Part shown: one piece after another, positions 5,996 to 45,840 of the stretch
How positions within the stretch are numbered: the stretch's first letter is position 1
Layout: each line of letters opens with the position of its first letter
The notes under the pieces: model-generated
What the model was told of the DNA's origin: nothing
The model's input: only the letters and a program-made list of their open reading frames with translations
Database searches by the model: none
Position numbers and translations under genes: made by a program
NCBI GenBank assembly: GCA_040757625.1
Contig: JBFLWU010000010.1
Span: 56,898-120,897, forward strand
Source: Thermodesulfobacteriota bacterium
Lineage (GTDB): Bacteria > Desulfobacterota > Desulfobacteria > Desulfobacterales > JARGFK01
Direction: 5' to 3'
Length of the DNA: 64,000 bases

Positions 5996-8900
5996 TTATT
6001 TCACCTCACCCCAGCTCGCCTTGCCGGTCTTGGCATTTTGAATCGGCAGATTGGGTTGCGGAATCTCCACAATCGTTCCGGTACTGGTCTGGACAAACGC
6101 CTTGGCGCCTTCCTGCCTGCCCACGTGCAGGTTCGGCGTGGTGGCCAGACCACGCCCCAGGGCCACCCGGTCTATCACGCCACCGGTAGTCGTATCGACA
6201 CCGGTGCTAAAAGCACTGATGAAAATTGGGATATAGAACGACGTTCCGGTCCGGAAATAGACACCGTAAAGATATCCCAGGCCCTCCGGCAGACAGGGGT
6301 CGGCATAAGGCTGGTAGCTGGTATAGGTCACCAGACCGCCCAGCAGGGTCGCCTGGCCCAGGTTGCGCTCTTTGCTCAGGGTAAGGTCCTTATACCAGCC
6401 GTCAGTCCCGCTGGAATCAGTTCCCGTATCACAGCCTGTGCCGGTTCCGGCGATATAACTCTCCAGCGTATCGAACGTCGTCAGGGTCGTCGGCGAAATC
6501 TCAAGACAGCTGGTCGAGCCGTCACTGCAGGAGAGTATGGCAGCGTGGGCGGTCGTCGCCTGATGCACCTGGATCTTTGTAACATCCAGGAGCCCCTGGT
6601 CGCCAGGCGTGCTGTTGTGATGAAAATCATCCACATCCGTCTTTTCAACTGTCTCCCAGGTAAAAGACGCCTGACAGTTGCTCGTGCTCCCGCTGAAGGA
6701 AAGCGGCTCCTTGATGCCGTAATAGGTCTGCTGACTGGTGTCGCTCTTATCACCGGTTTCCAGAAAACGACCGGTGCCGAAATAAACCCAGTAGTTTTTA
6801 CCGTCGGTCCCCACGCTGGCCGATGCCGTCACCGGTTGACTCGTATTTATCAGGGGCAGTGGATTTGTCAGAGACGAGGCGCTCAGCAGGCCGGACCAAT
6901 CGCTGGGAAGGGTTTCATCCTGCTTGCCGGTAACGCTGTTGATTTTCCGGGTAACCAGCCGCTGCAGGCCGCCCCCATAGGGCGCTGACGTGCCGGATAC
7001 GGTTCCGAAATAAACCACATCCGATTTAAAATTCTCCTCCAGTTCAAAGTCCACGGTAATCGGGTCCGAAACGAAACTGTTGCTGGTATAGGCCAGAACA
7101 AACTGGCCGCCCTCGTTATTGGCCACGCTTGGCGCGCCGCTCGGTATCCGGAATCCCCGGGCGGTGGATCCGCCCTGCCCCAGCCATTCCAGCGGCAGGA
7201 CGGCCACGCTGGCCGACTGGTTGCTGCTCCCGCTGACGCTGGTAGGCCCGCTGCCCATGACGAGATACCATTTATAGGTCACCGGCGGTCCTGCGTTTTT
7301 CATCACCACCAGGGTGGGAATGGCCAAGGTGAAACCCAATTCGGCTTCCGATCCGGAAGTGGTCCGTGTCATCTCCGCCAGCAGGACTGGCGGTTTTTCC
7401 GGATCGGTTATATCCATAACAAAGTAGGCTGAGGTAAATTCGCGGGTATCAGCCGGGTAATCCGCTGCCGCATTGCCGTTCAGATCCAGTACGCCCGGGC
7501 GAACTTTGCCGCCGCCGAGGCGCATGGCGCCCACCAGGAGGGTCCCCCATCCGCCCACATGGGTGGTGTCGCCGGTGGCGGGCCACAGGCGCACGTCAAA
7601 AATGCGCGGCCGCTGGTCCACATAGTACTTGTGCTGATAACCGGCCGACGTCATGCAGTTCAGGTGCGGCAGCAGGTTATAGGGGACATAGGCCCATAAC
7701 TCCGCCCCCAGATCCGGCGTATTGGTATTGACGCTGCAGTCGCTGGTGCGGCAGAATTTTTTCTGGGCTTCATTGTAGAATCCGCCGTTGACGGCATGCA
7801 TCATGCCGTCGTTGCCGCCGAAATAAATCATGTGGCGCCGTTTTTTGTAAGCCGCCACGAACTGGGCATAAGAGTTGTCGCGATACAAAAAATGATACCC
7901 TTCCGCCGGTGCCGCCACCGAAATCGGGGTGGAATGGATCACATCTCCCAGCCGCCAGGTTATGGTTTCATCCACGCCGTTATGATCGAAGTCATAGGGC
8001 ATCTGGCGCAGCCGCAGATTGTCGGGGGTATAATCCAGGCCCCGCAGCCACCTGATAATTGTGTCGACCTCGGCATTGGTCTGGACACCGAAATCGAGCG
8101 GCACGGGACCGCGGCCTCCGGACACCGACAGACCGGACCAGCTGGTGCCGGGTGTAAAGTCTAGCAGTTCGTTGCTGTCCACGATGCCGTCGTTGTCCAG
8201 ATCGTTCCAGGTAAAGATATAGCGTTTTTTTACATTCGATATAAACCCGGTGGTTGTCCCCACCAGGGTGCGGTTCTGTAAGATGTCGCCTGCGGCTGTT
8301 GCAGAAGCGGCCGTCGGTTGGATTTCCGCCAGCCACTGGGCCGCCGACCAGTGATACTTCACATCCTCCAGGTTCAACGTTGATCCGGTGCAGGCGCCGC
8401 CGGCGTCCAGATCGCCGACGCAGGCCTTGGTCTGATTGATGGATTGATCAAAGAAAAACACGATGCGCTGGTCGCCGCTATCCAGGGCATGGTCCCCGTT
8501 GCTGTCTTCATAGAGCTGTCCGTAGGCGTCCACCAGAAGGGAGTGGACCTCGCCGATCCACTGGACCTTGTCACCGCTGGCCAGGTCCACGCTAGGCCAG
8601 AAAATGGCCTGATAGGCGGCGCCTTCGCCGCTGCGCGAGGCCGAAATAACCGAGGCGGCCGAACCGGCCGCGGCCCCGGCCCGGATGGCGGCGAAGGCCG
8701 CCCGCAGGGTATTTTCAAGCTGGGTCGGGTCCGCAGCCTCATAAAGGGCGGTGCCGCCGTTGGCGGCGGCAGCTTCCAAGAGCACCTTGGGGTTGCATTC
8801 ATCGGCCGCACCGGTATCCCGCAGGGTGCCGGCCACCACGATATGGGTGGCGATGTTTTGCTTGTCCTGGGGGTTGCCGTCCGCGTCATTCATCTGGGAC

Positions 8901-11239
8901 ACTTGACAGTTTGAGCTGTTTTTCGCAAACCAAGTCAGATCGTCCAGCAGGGTGCTGCCGTTCAACGTCCCGCAGTTTGCGGAAGCGGTCGTGTCGCCGG
9001 TGTCGCCGTCATTCTGCCCGGAGGTGCCGGTAAAACTGACGACATCGGGGTTGACGTCCGCGGTGGAGGCCCCTTCGGTAATAATCAAAATGTTATTGTC
9101 CTGACAGTAGGCGGTGATGGGATCCACCGCCCCGGCATCCATGCCTACGATCTTGTAATCGGTGCTGTTCAGGCGCATCAGGGCGCCGTTAGTCCCATCC
9201 CGCTGGGTGTAATAGCCGATGGCGTTGTAAATAGCCTCGGCAAGAGGCGTCCAGGATGTGGCCTTAATGCTGTTGATGGCATTCACCAGGCTGGTAGTGT
9301 GAGCGCTGGACTTGTCGATTTCGGAAATCAGTTTGGCCGCGTCTTTATTGGTGGGATCCGTACACTTGTAAAGAACAAAGGGGTCTGCCGTGCTGCACTC
9401 GGCATTAGAACCCTCATGATTAAACACCATGGCGCCAATGCGAATATCATTGGCAAATTCCTGCAAGAGCCCGCTGGGAGCGCTGGTCCGCTCGATCATC
9501 CCCCTCATGACCAGCAGCGGCTGGCCGAGTTGCGCCACCACCCCGGAATCGGTCAAGAGGGCCGGTATGTTCCAGAATTCCTCGGTGGCGCCGGTCACCG
9601 GGCTGGTCCCGGCGATCTGGTCGCTGGGATCCACCACCTGCGGGATTTCGGTCTGGCCGCAGTAATCCTGCAAGGCCTGCTCAATGCAGGCATCCGCATC
9701 CGCATAGCCGGCCGCATCCCAGCCGCCTGTCACCACACCGGTATAATCCCATTTCTGGCATTCCCCGGTTGTGGGATGGGTCTTGGTACAGGTGGGCGTG
9801 CCCGACGCCGGCTTCCAGCAGCGCCCCACATAACCGATCTTGGTGCTGGGGTCGGCATCACCGTCCCAGACACCGAAGCAGACATACCCCCCCATGTCCG
9901 TGGTGATGTCCCAGGGTTGGGTGGTTCCGGCTGCCGGATAGATGGCTTCGCAGGCCGGTTTGATGGCCTGCACCGGGCCGCTGCCCGACGGCCAGGTGCC
10001 CTGTTTGGCCACGTACCAGCAGTTGTGAATGGAATGGTTGAAGGCGGCATTGAAGTTGGAAGTATCACCGGTATTGCCCGAGGCCAGGGCATTGTCGGCC
10101 ATGCAGGTATCGATGTCTTGTTTGATCTGGCCCTGGTTGGGGCTTGCCGAGTTTAATTCTTCGATGGCGTCCTGGCAGGCGTCGTTGTTATATCCGCCGG
10201 CAATGGTTTCAAAAATCTCGATCTGGGTCACATTGTAAGGCTCCCATTTCGGCCGCGTGGCATCGCCGGCATTGTCAGCGTCCGTCCCGCCGCTGGCGCT
10301 GGCCGTGCCCCCGGAAGTGGCAATGTACATGGAACCTTCATCAATGGAGTTGGCCTTGGTGGGATCAACAACGATATCGCCGGTCACATAAGGCGCCCCA
10401 GCTGTCCAGCGCGTCTTGGTATAGAGCGCCCAGCGGGGGGCCGGCGGAGAAGCCAGGGTGTTATCGTTTACCGTACTGACGGTACCGGATGTGCCGGCGG
10501 TCGTACACTTATACAGGTCCCCGCCGTCGCTGACTATCTTTCCGACTGCATAGGCTGTTGAGGCCTTCCAAGCGTCAAATTTGTCCTCTTTGGGCGGCCG
10601 CACCCCCAGGGTCACGGATTTGGCATTTCCCCCTGAGTCGGTTACCGCGATTTCCCGGACCATCCGTCTTTCCAGGCAGCCGCGCGATTCCATCACCAGC
10701 TTGCTGCTTTCATATTTCCCGCCGGTCAGAATTTTTTTCTGTATGTCGAGCTTGGACCCCGCGGCCCAGTTCAAAAAATTGCCGCTGGCCTTAAAAGCCG
10801 TAACGTTCAAGACCCCGTTGACTTTGATATAAATGATGTTTGCCGACGAATAAATATCCGTGGATGCGGCCGAGTCATAGAGACTGGCACTGGTGGAGTT
10901 CAGCCGGAACATTCTGTTGGTAAGGTCATAGACATACATTTCGGACGGTGTAAAATAGCCGGCATAAGTTATCCCATTATCATAGGAACTGTCGTAGCAG
11001 TAACTGGCGTCATTAACATAAGCCAAGTCCAGCATACTGGCGGAGTTGTCGATCACCAGGAGAAGATTGGGATCCACGCCGCCGGAAAGAAACGGCGGAG
11101 TGGCGTTGTCGCTGGCGCAGATGCCGGCCGAACTGGTGGGAAAGGCCGCCAGGGCCTTGCCGGGAGAAAATTCGCCGGCCGCCGCCAGCAGCGTTGCCAT
11201 CGCCAGAATCATCACTATATGTTTGCAGGAGCGTTTCAT
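5996..11239 (-). CDS. PilY1/PilC-like type IV pilus tip adhesin, giant cysteine-rich form with vWA-like N-domain
   Basis: ATG 11239 is preceded by AAGGAGG. Signal peptide MKRSCKHIVMILAMATLLAAAG...ALA. MIDAS-like LLLVIDNSASM. PilY1 beta-propeller-type motif YFGGNDGMMHAVNGG in the C-terminal half. It follows a PilX-like gene, as in fimU-pilVWXY1 operons. Confidence 0.8.
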   Translation of the reverse strand: MKRSCKHIVMILAMATLLAAAGEFSPGKALAAFPTSSAGICASDNATPPFLSGGVDPNLLLVIDNSASMLDLAYVNDASYCYDSSYDNGITYAGYFTPSEMYVYDLTNRMFRLNSTSASLYDSAASTDIYSSANIIYIKVNGVLNVTAFKASGNFLNWAAGSKLDIQKKILTGGKYESSKLVMESRGCLERRMVREIAVTDSGGNAKSVTLGVRPPKEDKFDAWKASTAYAVGKIVSDGGDLYKCTTAGTSGTVSTVNDNTLASPPAPRWALYTKTRWTAGAPYVTGDIVVDPTKANSIDEGSMYIATSGGTASASGGTDADNAGDATRPKWEPYNVTQIEIFETIAGGYNNDACQDAIEELNSASPNQGQIKQDIDTCMADNALASGNTGDTSNFNAAFNHSIHNCWYVAKQGTWPSGSGPVQAIKPACEAIYPAAGTTQPWDITTDMGGYVCFGVWDGDADPSTKIGYVGRCWKPASGTPTCTKTHPTTGECQKWDYTGVVTGGWDAAGYADADACIEQALQDYCGQTEIPQVVDPSDQIAGTSPVTGATEEFWNIPALLTDSGVVAQLGQPLLVMRGMIERTSAPSGLLQEFANDIRIGAMVFNHEGSNAECSTADPFVLYKCTDPTNKDAAKLISEIDKSSAHTTSLVNAINSIKATSWTPLAEAIYNAIGYYTQRDGTNGALMRLNSTDYKIVGMDAGAVDPITAYCQDNNILIITEGASTADVNPDVVSFTGTSGQNDGDTGDTTASANCGTLNGSTLLDDLTWFAKNSSNCQVSQMNDADGNPQDKQNIATHIVVAGTLRDTGAADECNPKVLLEAAAANGGTALYEAADPTQLENTLRAAFAAIRAGAAAGSAASVISASRSGEGAAYQAIFWPSVDLASGDKVQWIGEVHSLLVDAYGQLYEDSNGDHALDSGDQRIVFFFDQSINQTKACVGDLDAGGACTGSTLNLEDVKYHWSAAQWLAEIQPTAASATAAGDILQNRTLVGTTTGFISNVKKRYIFTWNDLDNDGIVDSNELLDFTPGTSWSGLSVSGGRGPVPLDFGVQTNAEVDTIIRWLRGLDYTPDNLRLRQMPYDFDHNGVDETITWRLGDVIHSTPISVAAPAEGYHFLYRDNSYAQFVAAYKKRRHMIYFGGNDGMMHAVNGGFYNEAQKKFCRTSDCSVNTNTPDLGAELWAYVPYNLLPHLNCMTSAGYQHKYYVDQRPRIFDVRLWPATGDTTHVGGWGTLLVGAMRLGGGKVRPGVLDLNGNAAADYPADTREFTSAYFVMDITDPEKPPVLLAEMTRTTSGSEAELGFTLAIPTLVVMKNAGPPVTYKWYLVMGSGPTSVSGSSNQSASVAVLPLEWLGQGGSTARGFRIPSGAPSVANNEGGQFVLAYTSNSFVSDPITVDFELEENFKSDVVYFGTVSGTSAPYGGGLQRLVTRKINSVTGKQDETLPSDWSGLLSASSLTNPLPLINTSQPVTASASVGTDGKNYWVYFGTGRFLETGDKSDTSQQTYYGIKEPLSFSGSTSNCQASFTWETVEKTDVDDFHHNSTPGDQGLLDVTKIQVHQATTAHAAILSCSDGSTSCLEISPTTLTTFDTLESYIAGTGTGCDTGTDSSGTDGWYKDLTLSKERNLGQATLLGGLVTYTSYQPYADPCLPEGLGYLYGVYFRTGTSFYIPIFISAFSTGVDTTTGGVIDRVALGRGLATTPNLHVGRQEGAKAFVQTSTGTIVEIPQPNLPIQNAKTGKASWGEVK

Positions 11240-11378
11240 GGATTGACCTCCTTTGCTTCCGCTGACATTCAATACTTTTATTTGATTATCCAATTTTCTG
11301 TAATCCAATTTCAAATAGTCCCCCCTTTTTTCCCGCTTTTTCGACAAGGGATTGGGAGGGATTCTAATTTATAAGTCA

Positions 11379-14329: not shown

Positions 14330-14484
14330 CCTTCATTTCCTCCTGCAAGCTATACAAACGTTAAAGCATGCCCCCGCCGTAAGGGCTTTGAAAATTGCCC
14401 CTGTTGCTCAATTGCAAGACAGAAAGATAGAAAATGTTAATTAGAGAAGCCGAGTGCTTTGAAGTATAATCAGCCGGGACGGAC

Positions 14485-14631
14485 TAGAAGTCGTTTCAAA
14501 ACCTCGGATCAGGTCTGAGAGCAAGGCGCAAGCCGATGAAAAAGCGCAGCATACACGGGAGTATGTGAGCATTTTGAAGAGGCTTGCAACACAGCTATCA
14601 GGCCTCAGATGGGGTTTTGAAATGACTTCTA
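14485..14631. repeat. Structured intergenic repeat, family 2, copy A (147 bp rod-like hairpin element)
   Basis: 19-bp terminal inverted repeats TAGAAGTCGTTTCAAAACC / GGTTTTGAAATGACTTCTA (1 mismatch). Internal stems GCAAGCC (14528-14534) / GGCTTGC (14581-14587) and CATAC/GTATG (14550-14565). Related copies at 33498-33614 and 43590-43736. Confidence 0.7.
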
Positions 14632-22372: not shown

Positions 22373-22717
22373 AATAATGCCCCGGGGCCCTTGCAGAACG
22401 CCCCCTTCTGCTCAATTTCGGCGTCAGGCCCAAAAGTTAATCCTCGAAATACCACCAGTATTTCTGCTGTCAAAATGCTTGCCTTCCTTGAAGCCGGACA
22501 AAATGGAGCATTTTTTAAAAGGTCGCGCCTTGGGAACGTATGCAATCAACCCGTTTTTATCCGATTTTATTGTCGGGCGGATCCGTCCGGCTGAATGCCG
22601 TCATGCCCGAACAAAGTTCAGCGGAGTAAAGTCGAAACGCCGAGAAACAGCTTTCGGTACGAAACAGATGCCAACGGCTATCGACCGGGCATGTGACCCT
22701 GTTTGCGCAATTCCGCG

Positions 22718-33462: not shown

Positions 33463-33497
33463 GTTTCCGGCCGGTTCCGAGTTACGATTTCAATCTT

Positions 33498-33614
33498 CAG
33501 GCGCTGTTTCAAAATCCAAAACGAGTCCTGAGAACAAGGCGTGCAGCATAAAAGCGGGACAGTCCCGTATCAGCGAACCCGTCAGGTCTTTTGTGGAGTT
33601 TTAAAGCAGCTTCT
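33498..33614. repeat. Structured intergenic repeat, family 2, copy B (shorter, diverged)
   Basis: Arms GCTGTTTCAAAATCCA (33503-33518) / TGGAGTTTTAAAGCAGC (33594-33610). Shares GTTTCAAAA..TCCTGAGAACAAGGCG..GCAGCATA and TATCAG..TCAGGTCT with copy A. Confidence 0.55.
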
Positions 33615-33618
33615 CCCC

Positions 33619-42641: not shown

Positions 42642-43591
42642 TGTTCTCACTTCTGGGAGGTATTTTTCTAGGATGGTCCCTGGGTGCCAATGACGCGGCC
42701 AATGTGTTCGGAACGGCCGTATCATCAAAAATGCTGAAATTCCACACAGCCGCGGTACTGGCCTCCGTCTTTGTCATCATCGGCGCACTGGTGTCCGGTC
42801 AGGCCGGCATTGAAACCCTTAAAGGCTTGACGGTCTTTAACCTTGAACAGGCGGTGATATCCTCGGTGGCGGCAGCTTTCACCGTGACGATCATGACGGC
42901 GTTTGGTCTGCCGGTATCCACTTCCCAAGCGGTTGTGGGGGCAATAGTGGGAATCGGTTTTTTAAACAATCAAATCAATTTTACCGGCCTGGGAAAGGTC
43001 GTTTCCTGCTGGGTGGGAACACCCATCGGGGCGGCAATCATCGCCTTTTTTCTTTATCGTTGGCTCGGCCGCCTCTATAATCGCGCCGATCTCAACCTCT
43101 TCGAGTCCGACGCGCTGCTGCGGCTGTCGCTGATCGTAGCGGGTATTTACGGGGCTTACACGCTGGGGGCCAATAATGTCGCCAATGTAACGGCCGTCTT
43201 TGTCGGCGCCGGACTAATCAGTGTTTTTTCAGCGGCCCTCATCGGCGGCGTCAGCATTGCTCTGGGCGTTATGACCTACAGTCGACCGGTTATGGAAACA
43301 GTCGGAAAAAAACTGGTTCGGCTGGACCCCTTTTCAGCCCTCATCGTAGTCCTTTCCCTCTCGGTGTCGGTTCATATCTTTACCCTCATCGGCGTTCCGG
43401 TTTCAACGTCCCAGGGGGTCATCGGCGCGGTCCTGGGCATCGGCATCGTCAAAGGCGCCAACACCATCAGCCGCAGAACCCTTCTTAACATCCTGATCGG
43501 GTGGCTGCTGACGCCGGTTCTGGCCTGCCTTTGCGCCCTGACCATATTTTTCCTCCTCCATTTATACTATATACCCCCCAACTATGCTTAA
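42641..43591 (+). CDS. PiT-family inorganic phosphate transporter
   Basis: Duplicated PiT signature GANDAANVFGTAVSS (N-terminal half) and GANNVANVTAV (C-terminal half). 316-aa polytopic protein. Confidence 0.85.
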   Translation: MFSLLGGIFLGWSLGANDAANVFGTAVSSKMLKFHTAAVLASVFVIIGALVSGQAGIETLKGLTVFNLEQAVISSVAAAFTVTIMTAFGLPVSTSQAVVGAIVGIGFLNNQINFTGLGKVVSCWVGTPIGAAIIAFFLYRWLGRLYNRADLNLFESDALLRLSLIVAGIYGAYTLGANNVANVTAVFVGAGLISVFSAALIGGVSIALGVMTYSRPVMETVGKKLVRLDPFSALIVVLSLSVSVHIFTLIGVPVSTSQGVIGAVLGIGIVKGANTISRRTLLNILIGWLLTPVLACLCALTIFFLLHLYYIPPNYA

Positions 43592-43736
43592 CAGGCTGCT
43601 AAAAAACAAGGATCAGGTTGCCTGGCAAAGCGCGCGGCGATTCGACAAGCGCAGCATATTCAAATATATGTGAGCATTGGAGAGTGCCGCGCAACGCCGT
43701 CTGGCAACCCCAGACGCAGTTTATCCACAGCCTGTT
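43590..43736. repeat. Structured intergenic repeat, family 2, copy C
   Basis: Arms AACAGGCTGCTAAAAAAC / GTTTATCCACAGCCTGTT. Stems GGTTGCC (43616-43622)/GGCAACC (43703-43709), GCGCGGC (43632-43638)/GCCGCGC (43686-43692) and CATAT/ATATG (43654-43670). Shares AAGCGCAGCATA...TATGTGAGCATT with copy A. Confidence 0.7.
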
Positions 43737-43746
43737 AGAGACCGGA

Positions 43747-45840
43747 TCAACTCTCAAGATCGTTCAACACCAGGGTGATGGGTCTTTCTTCAACGTTTTT
43801 TCCGGTGAAGCGAATCGGGCCGGGCCGGCGGTAATCGTCATCGCCGGGGACCGCCGCCAGCCACTTCTCCCTGAGCGCCCTGACGACTCTGAAAGAGGCC
43901 GAATTGACGTCCACCAAGCTCTTTTCCAATACCAGCTCCAGCTTGCCCTTGCGCTCCTCCAGATGCATCAGCGGTGCAATCGGTATCCCGATGGGCTCCC
44001 ATTTACTGAATTCTTTTTCCAGATTTTTGATCGCCGCCATCTGGCCGGTCACCCCGTTGGCAATTAGGCTGAAGACCGTCAGCCCCAGATTGTATGTATA
44101 GATGCAGTCAAACCGGGTCGGATCGTTCCCCCTGCCGTCATATCCGAAAAAATGGGCCTGGGTTTTAAATTTGGGAATGGACTTGTTGAATATTTTCAGG
44201 ACGGCGGCGGGAATGTCTTTGTCTTCGCTCAGGAGCCCCGCCTTGACAAGTTCCTGTTTCAGGGTCTTGACCGAAATGATGGCCGCTTTAATGCTCAACA
44301 GTTCTCCATTCCTGTAATTTTTAAATAAACAGCGGCCATAAGGATCCGGGTCCAGACCGTCCTTTTTCAGGGTTTTGGCAAAGTAGTCGCGGTCAATGCC
44401 GATTTTATATTGCCCCTCTTCAAAGAGAATATCCAGGTAATCCTTGACCATTCCCATGAGGACCTTGTCGGTTTCAACCTGTGAAAATTGAAAATTGCCG
44501 TGGCTGTCCCGTTCCATCAGCAGGCCTTCCTGGAAAAAAGCGGGAATGTCATTAAAAAGCTCGTCGTCGCGGGTGTTCCAGATCGTAAAACCGGCATCTT
44601 CACGGGAACGTCTGGCCAGCCGCCGCAGGTATTCCAGTTTATCTTCCAGCAGGGGAAAGTCGGAATGAAAATCGGTGTCGTGCGTCTGGTTATACTCGGC
44701 GATGATCATGTTTAATTTTATAATAAAAACCTGAATTTCATTGATAAATTCCAAAACTCCTTCGGGGATGACAATTACGCCGTAATTCTTGCCGACCGCA
44801 GCCCGCCGGACAATGCCGTCGCAGATGACCCGCGAAAGATGCCGCAGGGTCATGCCGTAGGAATTGTAATCCGTACCTCCTTCTTTTTGGGCCTTTTCCA
44901 GCCGTTTTACATCAATATAGTCGGCCAGATCTTCACCGATCAGGGTCATGTTGGGATGCGACTGCAGGGCGACCTCCAGCGCCAGATGGCTGGCAACGCG
45001 CCCCATGACCTTGCAGATATGCCAGTACTTGACATCCGAACTGCTGTCCGTGCAAAGGTTGCTGATCGCCAGGGCGAACGCCCGGGCCGCCGTATGGAAT
45101 CCGAATGACACGGCACACAGCACCCGGCCGTCGGCATCCCTGACCTGGATGTCGCCGTCAATGGTCTTGGGAACGCCGATCACCTGGACCCCCATGCCGA
45201 TCATCTCCTCGGCCAGAAAGGCGGCATTGGTGTTGGAGTCGTCACCCCCTACGATCACCAACGCATCAAGGGACAGTTGTTTACAGGTTTCTTTGGAAAG
45301 CGCCATCTTCTGTTTGGAGTCTATTTTGGTTCTTCCGGTCTTGATCATGGTAAATCCACCCAGGTTCCGGTATTTCTCCACCAGTTCATCGTTGAGAATG
45401 ACGGCCTCGTTTTCAATAATTCCGTCCGGCCCCACCAGAAATCCGTAAACCCGCGTGTCCGGATTGGCTTTTTTGGCAGCGTCGTAAAGACCGGCAATCA
45501 CATTATGTCCGCCGGGCGCCGGACCTCCGGAAAAAACGATACCGATATTACGCTTTCGGGAATAAGCGGACCTAAACGCGTTATCCGGGGAATCCATCGG
45601 CATGACCGTTTGAACCTTATTTTTGACGATATGCGGCAGTTTTTTCAGAACCTCATGATGGATTGCAAAACGATAGCGGTCATCTTCCTTCAATACGGTA
45701 TAGGGGCTCTTAAACACCTTGCAGACGGGAGGCCGGTAGGACCTGCGATCCAGCAATTCACGGTTGACGCTGTCGATTGCCGCGCGAACTTTTTCGTTGG
45801 TTAAGAGCTTTTCCAGACTGATAGTTTTTTTGCCAGACAT
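43747..45840 (-). CDS. pfp: Pyrophosphate-dependent phosphofructokinase (long form)
   Basis: ATG 45840 is preceded by GGGAGGG. IGIVFSGGPAPGGHNV, VIVGGDDSNTNAA and PKTIDGD motifs. 697 aa. Confidence 0.85.
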   Translation of the reverse strand: MSGKKTISLEKLLTNEKVRAAIDSVNRELLDRRSYRPPVCKVFKSPYTVLKEDDRYRFAIHHEVLKKLPHIVKNKVQTVMPMDSPDNAFRSAYSRKRNIGIVFSGGPAPGGHNVIAGLYDAAKKANPDTRVYGFLVGPDGIIENEAVILNDELVEKYRNLGGFTMIKTGRTKIDSKQKMALSKETCKQLSLDALVIVGGDDSNTNAAFLAEEMIGMGVQVIGVPKTIDGDIQVRDADGRVLCAVSFGFHTAARAFALAISNLCTDSSSDVKYWHICKVMGRVASHLALEVALQSHPNMTLIGEDLADYIDVKRLEKAQKEGGTDYNSYGMTLRHLSRVICDGIVRRAAVGKNYGVIVIPEGVLEFINEIQVFIIKLNMIIAEYNQTHDTDFHSDFPLLEDKLEYLRRLARRSREDAGFTIWNTRDDELFNDIPAFFQEGLLMERDSHGNFQFSQVETDKVLMGMVKDYLDILFEEGQYKIGIDRDYFAKTLKKDGLDPDPYGRCLFKNYRNGELLSIKAAIISVKTLKQELVKAGLLSEDKDIPAAVLKIFNKSIPKFKTQAHFFGYDGRGNDPTRFDCIYTYNLGLTVFSLIANGVTGQMAAIKNLEKEFSKWEPIGIPIAPLMHLEERKGKLELVLEKSLVDVNSASFRVVRALREKWLAAVPGDDDYRRPGPIRFTGKNVEERPITLVLNDLES

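Follow-up and report, generated by a model that had tools for sequence, protein, structure and literature searches.

The window analysed here is a stretch of 64,000 nt from a contig of a Thermodesulfobacteriota metagenome-assembled genome (MAG), and the subject of this analysis is a family of intergenic hairpin elements with a conserved tip, four copies of which are found in it. The copies are spaced by 10-20 kb, and the neighbours of all four are housekeeping genes (a purQ-type amidotransferase, cdsA, uppS, a CCA/polyA polymerase, adk, the PiT phosphate transporter and the phosphofructokinase, PFK). Copies A and C are near-perfect hairpins from end to end, with a common invariant tip and with stems that differ from one another by compensatory changes, while copies B and D are decayed. 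The features are the following (arm groups, that is, clusters of similar arms, are described further below):

14485-14631, + strand: copy A, intact, 147 nt, arm group 0, reading TA + GAAGTCGTTTCAAAACC... + ...GGTTTTGAAATGACTTC + TA.
14522-14528, + strand: 5' internal-loop block CAAGGCG of copy A, conserved, with its 3' partner CAACACAG at 14587-14594.
14542-14573, + strand: apical module of copy A, an exact match to the 32-nt core pattern, supported by pairing and invariance in the alignment.
22380-22530, - strand: copy D, decayed, of the TCAAGGAAGG...CTGACGC arm type, with the variant core CAGCAGAAAUAC..GUAUUUCGAGGA; found as a hit of the covariance model.
33495-33617, + strand: copy B, decayed and internally deleted, arm group 0; it retains GCGCTGTTTCAAAATCC / GGAGTTTTAAAGCAGC and ...GAACAAGGCGTGCAGCATA as its ends and has lost the core.
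43589-43737, + strand: copy C, intact, 149 nt, arm group 1, reading TA + ACAGGCTGCTAAAAAAC... + ...CACAGCCTGT + TA.
43647-43678, + strand: apical module of copy C, an exact match to the core pattern.

Three of these elements (A, B and C) had been pointed out in a preliminary description of this DNA as members of one family with a common hairpin architecture. Their positions have been confirmed, the limits being refined to those given above for A and, one base wider on each side, for C. The sequence blocks then reported as shared (GGATCAGGT, AAGCGCAGCATA and TATGTGAGCATT) are indeed common to A and C, and the three stems proposed to differ between these two copies by compensatory changes are correct, namely GCAAGCC/GGCTTGC versus GCGCGGC/GCCGCGC, TCTGAG/CTCAGA versus GGTTGCC/GGCAACC, and CATAC/GTATG versus CATAT/ATATG. 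Membership on equal terms holds for A and C but not for B, which is decayed and coreless and is a degenerate relic. In fact, the 32-nt core pattern matches the window at the two apical modules only (0.00 matches expected from shuffles). The RNA fold of copy A reaches -72.7 kcal/mol (z -9.9) and that of copy C -62.8 kcal/mol (z -5.5), with none of 200 shuffles as stable in either case, whereas copy B folds weakly (-35.6 kcal/mol, z -2.8). A covariance model, which had been suggested as a check, has been built from 55 relatives and recovers A and C strongly (146.6 bits, E 8.6e-31, and 118.8 bits, respectively) and B weakly (24.3 bits, E 0.0044), together with copy D (32.6 bits, E 6e-05), which was not among the copies first described.

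With respect to the neighbouring genes, copy A sits between the 3' ends of convergent open reading frames (ORFs), and copy D lies directly upstream of the cdsA-like gene. In the case of copy C, the PiT ORF ends at 43591, the left TA of the element and its first base forming the TAA stop codon of the gene (43589-43591). The right TA of this copy is followed by G, from which it follows that the stop codon before insertion would have been TAG; this implies an insertion into the stop codon that left the protein unchanged. No real ORF is found within copies A or C, as had been stated before, the sole overlapping one (43618-44067) being antisense to the phosphofructokinase gene. A possible start of a small ORF in copy A (AAGG-N9-ATGAAAAAG) was rejected, its ATG not being kept in other members.

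The structure of the family has been derived from a 55-member alignment, in which the consensus comprises 27 pairs. From the outside in, its plan consists of a terminal inverted repeat, two variable stems, an internal loop formed by 5'-CAAGGCG and 5'-CAACGCMG, a third variable stem and, finally, the tip. Near-invariant columns underlie both blocks of the internal loop (C38, A39, A40, G41 and G42 on one side; A105, C106, C108 and G110 on the other). The consensus tip begins with an A.A mismatch, followed by a G-C and a C-G pair, an internal loop 5'-GCA / 5'-GA, a stem made up of G.U, C-G, A-U, U-A, A-U and N-N', and a terminal loop of 4-6 nt. The apical module of copy A shows this design in full, with the A.A mismatch, the GC/GC pairs, the G(C)A/GA internal loop, the G.U-closed 6-bp stem GCAUAC/GUAUGU and a loop of 6 nt. 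The mismatch is not imposed by the search pattern: taking one representative per arm group, an A follows the core in 38 of 38 and precedes it in 31 of 38, and positions -2/+2 are Watson-Crick in 36 of the 38. Of 123 copies, 120 have a Watson-Crick closing pair N-N' (C-G in 66, U-A in 37 and G-C in 17), which is never A-U; this absent pair (0/123) would give CAUAA/UUAUG, which is the inner palindrome of dif sites. The tip design is also kept by the variant cores of copies found by the model, such as GCGGAGCAUAC, CCGCAGCAUAG..CUAUGUGAGG and GAGCGUAC..GUACGUGAG.

Outside the tip the sequences are highly variable, although not free in their pairing. With the core masked, the arms cluster into 38 groups that have no BLAST-detectable similarity to each other, 27 of them singletons. 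Nevertheless, 93.4% of the paired cells of the alignment (55 sequences, 27 pairs) can pair, compared with 72.4% in column shuffles and 28-51% when the partners are slid; 311 cells have changed on both sides, against 102 expected, and the covariation score is 0.547 against 0.168, a value that none of 500 shuffles reaches. The earlier proposal that covariation reflects selection on structure is partly sustained: covariation holds over the 55 sequences, but the complementarity of arms is by itself no proof of selection on an RNA fold or of RNA function, because the arms of inverted-repeat transposons can also stay complementary through selection for transposition or through conversion between arms.

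Several known motifs have been considered for the structure by eye and dropped. The hammerhead sequence CUGANGA is not conserved across members, the G.A/A.G register required by a kink-turn clashes with a covarying stem, and resemblances to IHF, boxA, ops and SRP sites are either not conserved or out of register. Some members depart from the plan in other ways. At loci L044 (reverse strand, right after the core) and L094 (4105-4215), insertions of about 108 nt, placed directly 3' of the core, split the element; they are different in sequence and have in common a small hairpin, CCGC(G)TYAGCGGG. They could represent a small nested element with this spot as its target or, alternatively, an additional domain that is optional, and a group II intron was not matched by Rfam in these two interrupted copies. 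At L065 (2275-2554), two copies with a common arm lie directly in tandem with their cores about 120 nt apart, which suggests slippage or recombination between arms as their origin.

A scan with GCGCAGCATA-N4-12-TATGTGAGC, made over one genome per species, lists at least 119 loci that carry the core. They belong to Desulfobacterales and other Desulfobacterota, to Legionella and other Legionellales, to many other Gammaproteobacteria and to Alistipes/Rikenellaceae (Bacteroidota); single matches among those listed were given by MAGs with the labels Hyphomicrobiales, Methylopilaceae, Magnetococcales, Mariprofundaceae and Clostridia. The core is placed at the tip of a hairpin in every listed locus, and the trimmed hairpins measure 123-166 nt (10th to 100th percentile; median 148), a few being truncated to 40 nt. 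Several genomes have two or three loci among the matches listed, and the covariance model adds about 14 further copies with variant cores within the same 8-kb loci, that is, about one extra copy per 50 kb. The copies of one genome are 72-91% identical, their flanks being unrelated, and no gene family recurs among the 596 ORFs that neighbour the copies. Members of arm groups 0 and 1, otherwise found in Desulfobacterales-type MAGs, are present with high model scores in a MAG labelled Hyphomicrobiales (L002, L060 and L068), which could be due to horizontal spread or to mis-binning.

The kind of element is already known, and the particular family is absent from Rfam and from the literature searched. 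At the gathering threshold Rfam yields a single tRNA in the window; permissively (E up to 10), no family is found at the elements, the best weak match near A being abiF with 21.6 bits of the 37 needed, and there was no match on seven related loci, in line with the earlier statement that no known RNA family could be assigned. Blastn searches of family members gave no match in 5,426 E. coli genomes or in plasmids. A literature search on the core strings returned irrelevant primer matches only; the multicopy sequence families of Geobacter metallireducens and Chunjie (178-235 bp, with 9-bp direct repeats) are different elements.

The folding preference of the two strands and the orientation of the copies bear on whether the product of the family is an RNA. 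In 100 of the 119 listed cases, the strand on which the core is written has a better fold than its complement, by a median of 6.6 kcal/mol. When the consensus is folded with G.U forbidden, so as to obtain a strand-neutral structure, G.U pairs exceed A.C by 178 to 100, a cruder arm-to-arm count giving 322 to 254. The G.U:A.C ratio differs between arm groups (group 0, 66:17; group 1, 33:30; group 4, 9:9). One strand is favoured, far less than in typical structured RNAs. As for the neighbour genes, their arrangement around the copies is +|- in 31 cases, -|- in 27, +|+ in 17 and -|+ in 14: the copies prefer gene 3' ends and have no fixed sense orientation, the antisense one being rather commoner in tandem pairs (27 vs 17). 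No intrinsic terminator, understood as a G+C-rich hairpin followed by a U-run, is found at A or at C, and a single promoter-like match was obtained, at 14442-14470, immediately upstream of A, a number no different from that of shuffled sequence (1.1 expected).

These data can be set against the possibility that the elements form a structured non-coding RNA family in which the rod and the tip are the functional product (a protein-binding, processing-signal or selfish RNA) and the DNA repeat is secondary. Strong covariation of the stems around invariant irregular features (the blocks CAAGGCG/CAACGC, the A.A mismatch, the G(C)A/GA loop and one invariant G.U pair) speaks for it, as do the better folding of the top strand, the excess of G.U over A.C, a terminal loop of 4-6 nt with a covarying closing pair and conservation across phyla. 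On the other hand, the orientation to neighbours is not fixed, promoters beyond chance, terminators and an Rfam family are all lacking at A and C, the genomic context is not conserved, copies such as B and D decay in place, the strand asymmetry is modest and absent from arm group 1, and the TA-flanked inverted-repeat ends, kept within each arm group, point to an enzyme acting on DNA. An RNA product is in our opinion unlikely, and the small RNA (sRNA) genes that the preliminary description had counted among its candidates find no support in promoters or in an orientation rule.

The preference for gene 3' ends would also fit a regulatory site of the host, either a terminator or attenuator or a site bound as duplex, such as a dif/Xer-like site. 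In fact, the core resembles two inverted arms of about 10 bp around a spacer of 6-8 bp and is superficially similar to the dif site of E. coli (GCGCATAA-N6-TTATGT). However, terminator-like sites are absent from A and C, contrary to the terminator family that had also been proposed, and a T-run after the core is not conserved. A dif-type site was rejected in turn: the spacer is of variable length and has an outer pair that covaries in the manner of a hairpin, the published dif of Deltaproteobacteria (...CCCATAA-N6-TTATGTAAAGT) does not match, Legionellales, which hold many copies of the family, have been reported to lack dif/Xer (PMC2731167), and a multicopy, dispersed distribution contradicts this role. 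A host site of either kind is regarded as highly improbable.

The ends of the elements point in another direction. Exact TA dinucleotides on both sides are found in 18 of 60 sharply delimited copies, where about 4 (around 1 in 16) would be expected, and these belong to at least 10 independent arm groups; since TA is self-complementary, they are indistinguishable as target duplication from a part of the repeat itself. Many further copies have TA on one side. Terminal inverted repeats are kept within arm groups, for example TAGAAGTGGTTTCAAAACC...GGTTTTGAAACCACTTCTA in group 0 and (TA)ACAGGGTGTTGAAAAAC in group 1, and several ends start with TA|ACAGGGTG, TA|TCAGGGCT or CAGGCTACC. The last three resemble the ends of mariner elements, such as ACAGGTTG in Himar1 and TCAGGTGT in Mos1. 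Elements of the IS630/Tc1-mariner type insert at TA with duplication of this dinucleotide, the transposase alone being sufficient (PMC2170065).

Copy C is missing from the PiT-PFK site in relatives whose PiT is 80-91% identical. In relatives with 80% identity, only 50 bp separate PiT from PFK and there is no element; one relative with 91% identity has an unrelated spacer of 95 bp, also devoid of copy C, and another (L120:2400-2490) has at the site another kind of hairpin, about 60 nt long, TAGTACCTTAGAAATAATTTTCTGC...GCAGAAAATTATTTCGTTAAGGTACTTA, whose ends are like those of the GGGTACCTTGAAAAATTAG arm group and which does not have the conserved tip. This suggests that insertions have a hotspot in the PiT-PFK spacer and that a given pair of ends can enclose different interiors. 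A further case is L106 (4115-4250), where a long hairpin with ends like those of the GGGTACCTTGAAAA arm group has a wholly different interior and no core, so that more than one non-autonomous element appears to make use of the ends of this group. At L017 (2501-2545), a mini-derivative of about 44 bp consists of two terminal repeats of arm group 0 and a short spacer (TAGAAGTGGTTTCAAAACC-TGATCTGAGTC-TTTGAAGCCACTTC), and L089 carries a truncated relic. The decayed copies B and D, the ends-only form of L017 and the relic of L089 complete a transposon-like life cycle.

On balance, the elements are probably copies of a non-autonomous DNA transposon, i.e., of a MITE (miniature inverted-repeat transposable element), flanked by TA, fully palindromic and of the ERIC/IRU-RUP-Correia type. 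They are small (below about 300 bp), non-coding, multicopy and dispersed, their inverted repeats are kept within each arm group and their presence varies between relatives. Of the candidates put forward in the preliminary description, a REP/MITE-like mobile hairpin is the one that has prospered, the MITE-like option being the best fit to dispersed, multicopy elements with TA-flanked inverted-repeat ends, decayed copies and presence/absence.

According to this MITE model, a copy would consist of TA, a terminal inverted repeat, long complementary arms and the conserved tip. Its ends, specific for each subfamily, would be recognised in trans by a transposase of the IS630/Tc1-mariner type, which would insert the element at TA and thereby duplicate the dinucleotide, and the ends would co-vary with lineage-specific transposases, presumably of IS630 type. 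Once single-stranded, either in a read-through transcript or in extruded or replicating DNA, the copy would form a rod of 60-70 bp because its two halves are complementary. The tip may then work as a cis-acting signal for the propagation or processing of the element itself, for instance as a site for a widely conserved factor, and copies that no longer propagate, such as B and D, would lose it. The tip is invariant in intact-looking copies and lost in relics, which argues against host selection at each locus. In the most economical reading the elements make up a superfamily of non-autonomous palindromic transposons with TA flanks, in which strong purifying selection acts on the tip through the element itself. 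Its irregular and asymmetric design, the variable loop and the moderate strand bias suggest that it is recognised in a folded single-stranded form, RNA or DNA.

Several observations weigh against the MITE model. The main weakness, and equally what gives the family most of its interest, is that recognition of a folded tip is no known requirement of IS630-type transposition. Moreover, a centre conserved across phyla with variable ends is the reverse of an ordinary MITE and is not required by IS630-type cut-and-paste, and duplex DNA would not produce the strand asymmetry in folding (100/119) or the excess of G.U over A.C (178:100). The Alistipes and Legionellales types often have no obvious TA ends. 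No clean empty site is available, the intergenic DNA of the relatives being too diverged to align, and scans of metagenomes for the exact junctions predicted for empty sites of A and C gave no match. Neither the window nor the 124 loci (about 0.9 Mb) yielded a transposase partner whose ends match, and the lone ends that appeared in this search are relics or mini-derivatives only. Neither blastn nor nhmmer detected homology to ERIC, which the covariance model scores at only 9.9 bits.

Inverted repeats 0.7-2.5 kb apart were also considered as a possible autonomous partner and rejected, being either the product of chance or, at L101, an inverted gene duplication. In the latter locus (1457-2529, from an Alistipes MAG), a perfect 26-bp inverted repeat, whose units are spaced by 1,073 bp, is found between two copies of a surface-protein gene, one full-length and the other truncated and inverted, that share the motif GNGY(I/V)CQSATY.THITGIP; the segment looks like an invertible, phase-variable one and not like an insertion sequence (IS).

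An alternative that accounts for a conserved tip is a mobile element propagated as a single-stranded DNA hairpin, following the logic of REP/REPIN-RAYT, IS200/IS605 or attC systems, in which an enzyme reads the tip and the arms need only pair. It would be in agreement with the asymmetric unpaired bases of the conserved part, which recall sites read in folded form, and with the bias towards the top strand. In addition, copy C starts with GCTTAAC and ends with GTTAGAG, close to the R''/R' boxes of attC, whose consensus is RYYYAAC...GTTRRRY. The top strand coincides weakly with the C-rich strand of the locus (65 vs 41 cases); this skew, however, points to the leading-strand template, whereas such systems favour the lagging-strand one, the exposure of which the bias does not fit. 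Furthermore, no HUH or tyrosine recombinase gene recurs among the 596 neighbouring ORFs, and the core pattern has no match in 2.9 million viral contigs. An integron attC site was rejected, since only arm group 1 resembles the boxes and the copies, 10-20 kb apart among housekeeping genes, form no integron-like array. Finally, ends that are conserved in sequence within each arm group and bear TA on both sides are not what IS200/IS605 and RAYT systems yield. All this makes a single-stranded DNA element of this sort quite improbable.

Two further observations concern the surroundings of the elements. In a gammaproteobacterial MAG (L048:530-2435), a nearly perfect inverted duplication of about 1.9 kb adjoins a member of the family. 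In the window, the largest ORF codes for 1,783 aa (5996-11347, - strand).

The family can be compared with several known systems. Bacterial MITEs are usually defined by their ends, and 97.4% of their clusters have been found to be genus-specific in a survey of 183,232 genomes (PMC11602168). Here, by contrast, an irregular tip of about 30 nt is constant and the arms and ends fall into at least 38 groups that cannot be aligned, so that a conserved centre with variable ends, maintained across phyla, is an unusual organisation for MITEs. A practical consequence is that the elements, being unannotated, can be mistaken for sRNA genes or terminators and can break assemblies; conversely, the subfamilies could help to check the binning of MAGs.

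The REP/REPIN-RAYT systems share with the family the dispersed extragenic palindromic hairpins, compensatory evolution and the preference for gene 3' ends. The distribution of conservation is nevertheless the opposite, because in REPINs the flanking REP units are conserved and the tip is variable, whereas in the family the tip is kept and the arms vary; besides, TA flanks are not expected for REPINs, and a RAYT gene was not seen among the 596 neighbouring ORFs. A second group is that of the MITEs related to IS630. For example, RUP of Streptococcus pneumoniae is a small palindromic repeat at TA, thought to be mobilised in trans by an IS630-family transposase through the similarity of their ends (PMC2229807). 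The family is likewise a small palindromic repeat of the TA type, but its cognate IS was not found in the window or the 124 loci, and a central module present across phyla has not been reported for RUP. A third system is the Correia or NEMIS element of Neisseria, an inverted repeat of 100-155 bp flanked by TA, with a central IHF site, which is co-transcribed and whose hairpins are cut by RNase III (PMC2229807; PMC10969869). Both are TA-flanked inverted-repeat elements, and in Correia too a functional module occupies the centre; the sequences are different, the family has no IHF consensus, and Correia is confined to one genus.

The closest known relative is ERIC, in the sense of a shared tip design and not of established common descent. 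ERIC-type repeats of 123-127 bp are flanked by TA, with duplication of TA, and have a very strong hairpin, IS630-type ends and positions that vary between strains (PMC6267812; PMC3184786). This is the case of MITEPlu5 of Photorhabdus, a 123-bp element with TA as target and duplication, a strong hairpin, IS630-like ends and polymorphism between strains (PMC6267812). Like these ERIC/IRU elements (MITEEc1 in ISfinder, MITEPlu5, and MITEYpe1 of Yersinia), the family consists of gene-less intergenic palindromes, imperfect and full-length, of about 125-150 bp with TA on both sides. Taking as reference the ERIC of E. coli at L124 (363-489), its tip folds as CAG-GA-GCUUAC-AUAA-GUAAGU-GA-CUG and that of the family as AGC-G(C)A-GCAUAC-loop-GUAUGU-GA-GCA. 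Common to the two are a 6-bp stem GCWUAC/GUAWGU with a closing G.U, an internal loop of the GA/GA type and then a G+C stem; they coincide at 14 of 16 positions, the other two differing by a compensatory flip from A-U to U-A. A variant of the family at L008 (1357) bridges both tips with GA-GCGUAC..GUACGU-GA, and AAGGCG and AAACGCAGC occur in the arms of ERIC at comparable distances from the tip. The best match of the family covariance model on the ERIC locus is ERIC itself, over its full length and on the same strand, but with only 9.9 bits and an E value of 0.11. There are differences as well: the ends of ERIC are unrelated to those of the family, whose tip shows in addition one more base, bulged, in the internal loop and the A.A mismatch below it. 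ERIC has been reported from Enterobacteriaceae and Vibrionaceae only (PMC10969869), whereas the family spans Desulfobacterota, Legionellales, other Gammaproteobacteria and Bacteroidota, with single matches elsewhere.

The presence of the same tip design in ERIC is of significance because the mobilisation and function of this classic enterobacterial repeat are unclear after 35 years. A tentative extension of the MITE model, which we see as possible though doubtful, is that the tip module (the A.A mismatch, the G(N)A/GA loop and the G.U-closed GCWUAN stem) might be a portable and ancient cis-element common to ERIC and to dozens of TA-flanked hairpin MITE families, unrelated in other respects, in at least three phyla, where it would act as a folded, single-stranded docking site for a widely conserved factor needed for their spread or tolerance. 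If the tip is a recognition site, it would provide a handle on a factor common to very different bacteria. And if the extension as a whole is true, ERIC would be one branch of a bacterial superfamily, and the movement and role of ERIC-type repeats would become testable by means of one defined 30-nt motif.

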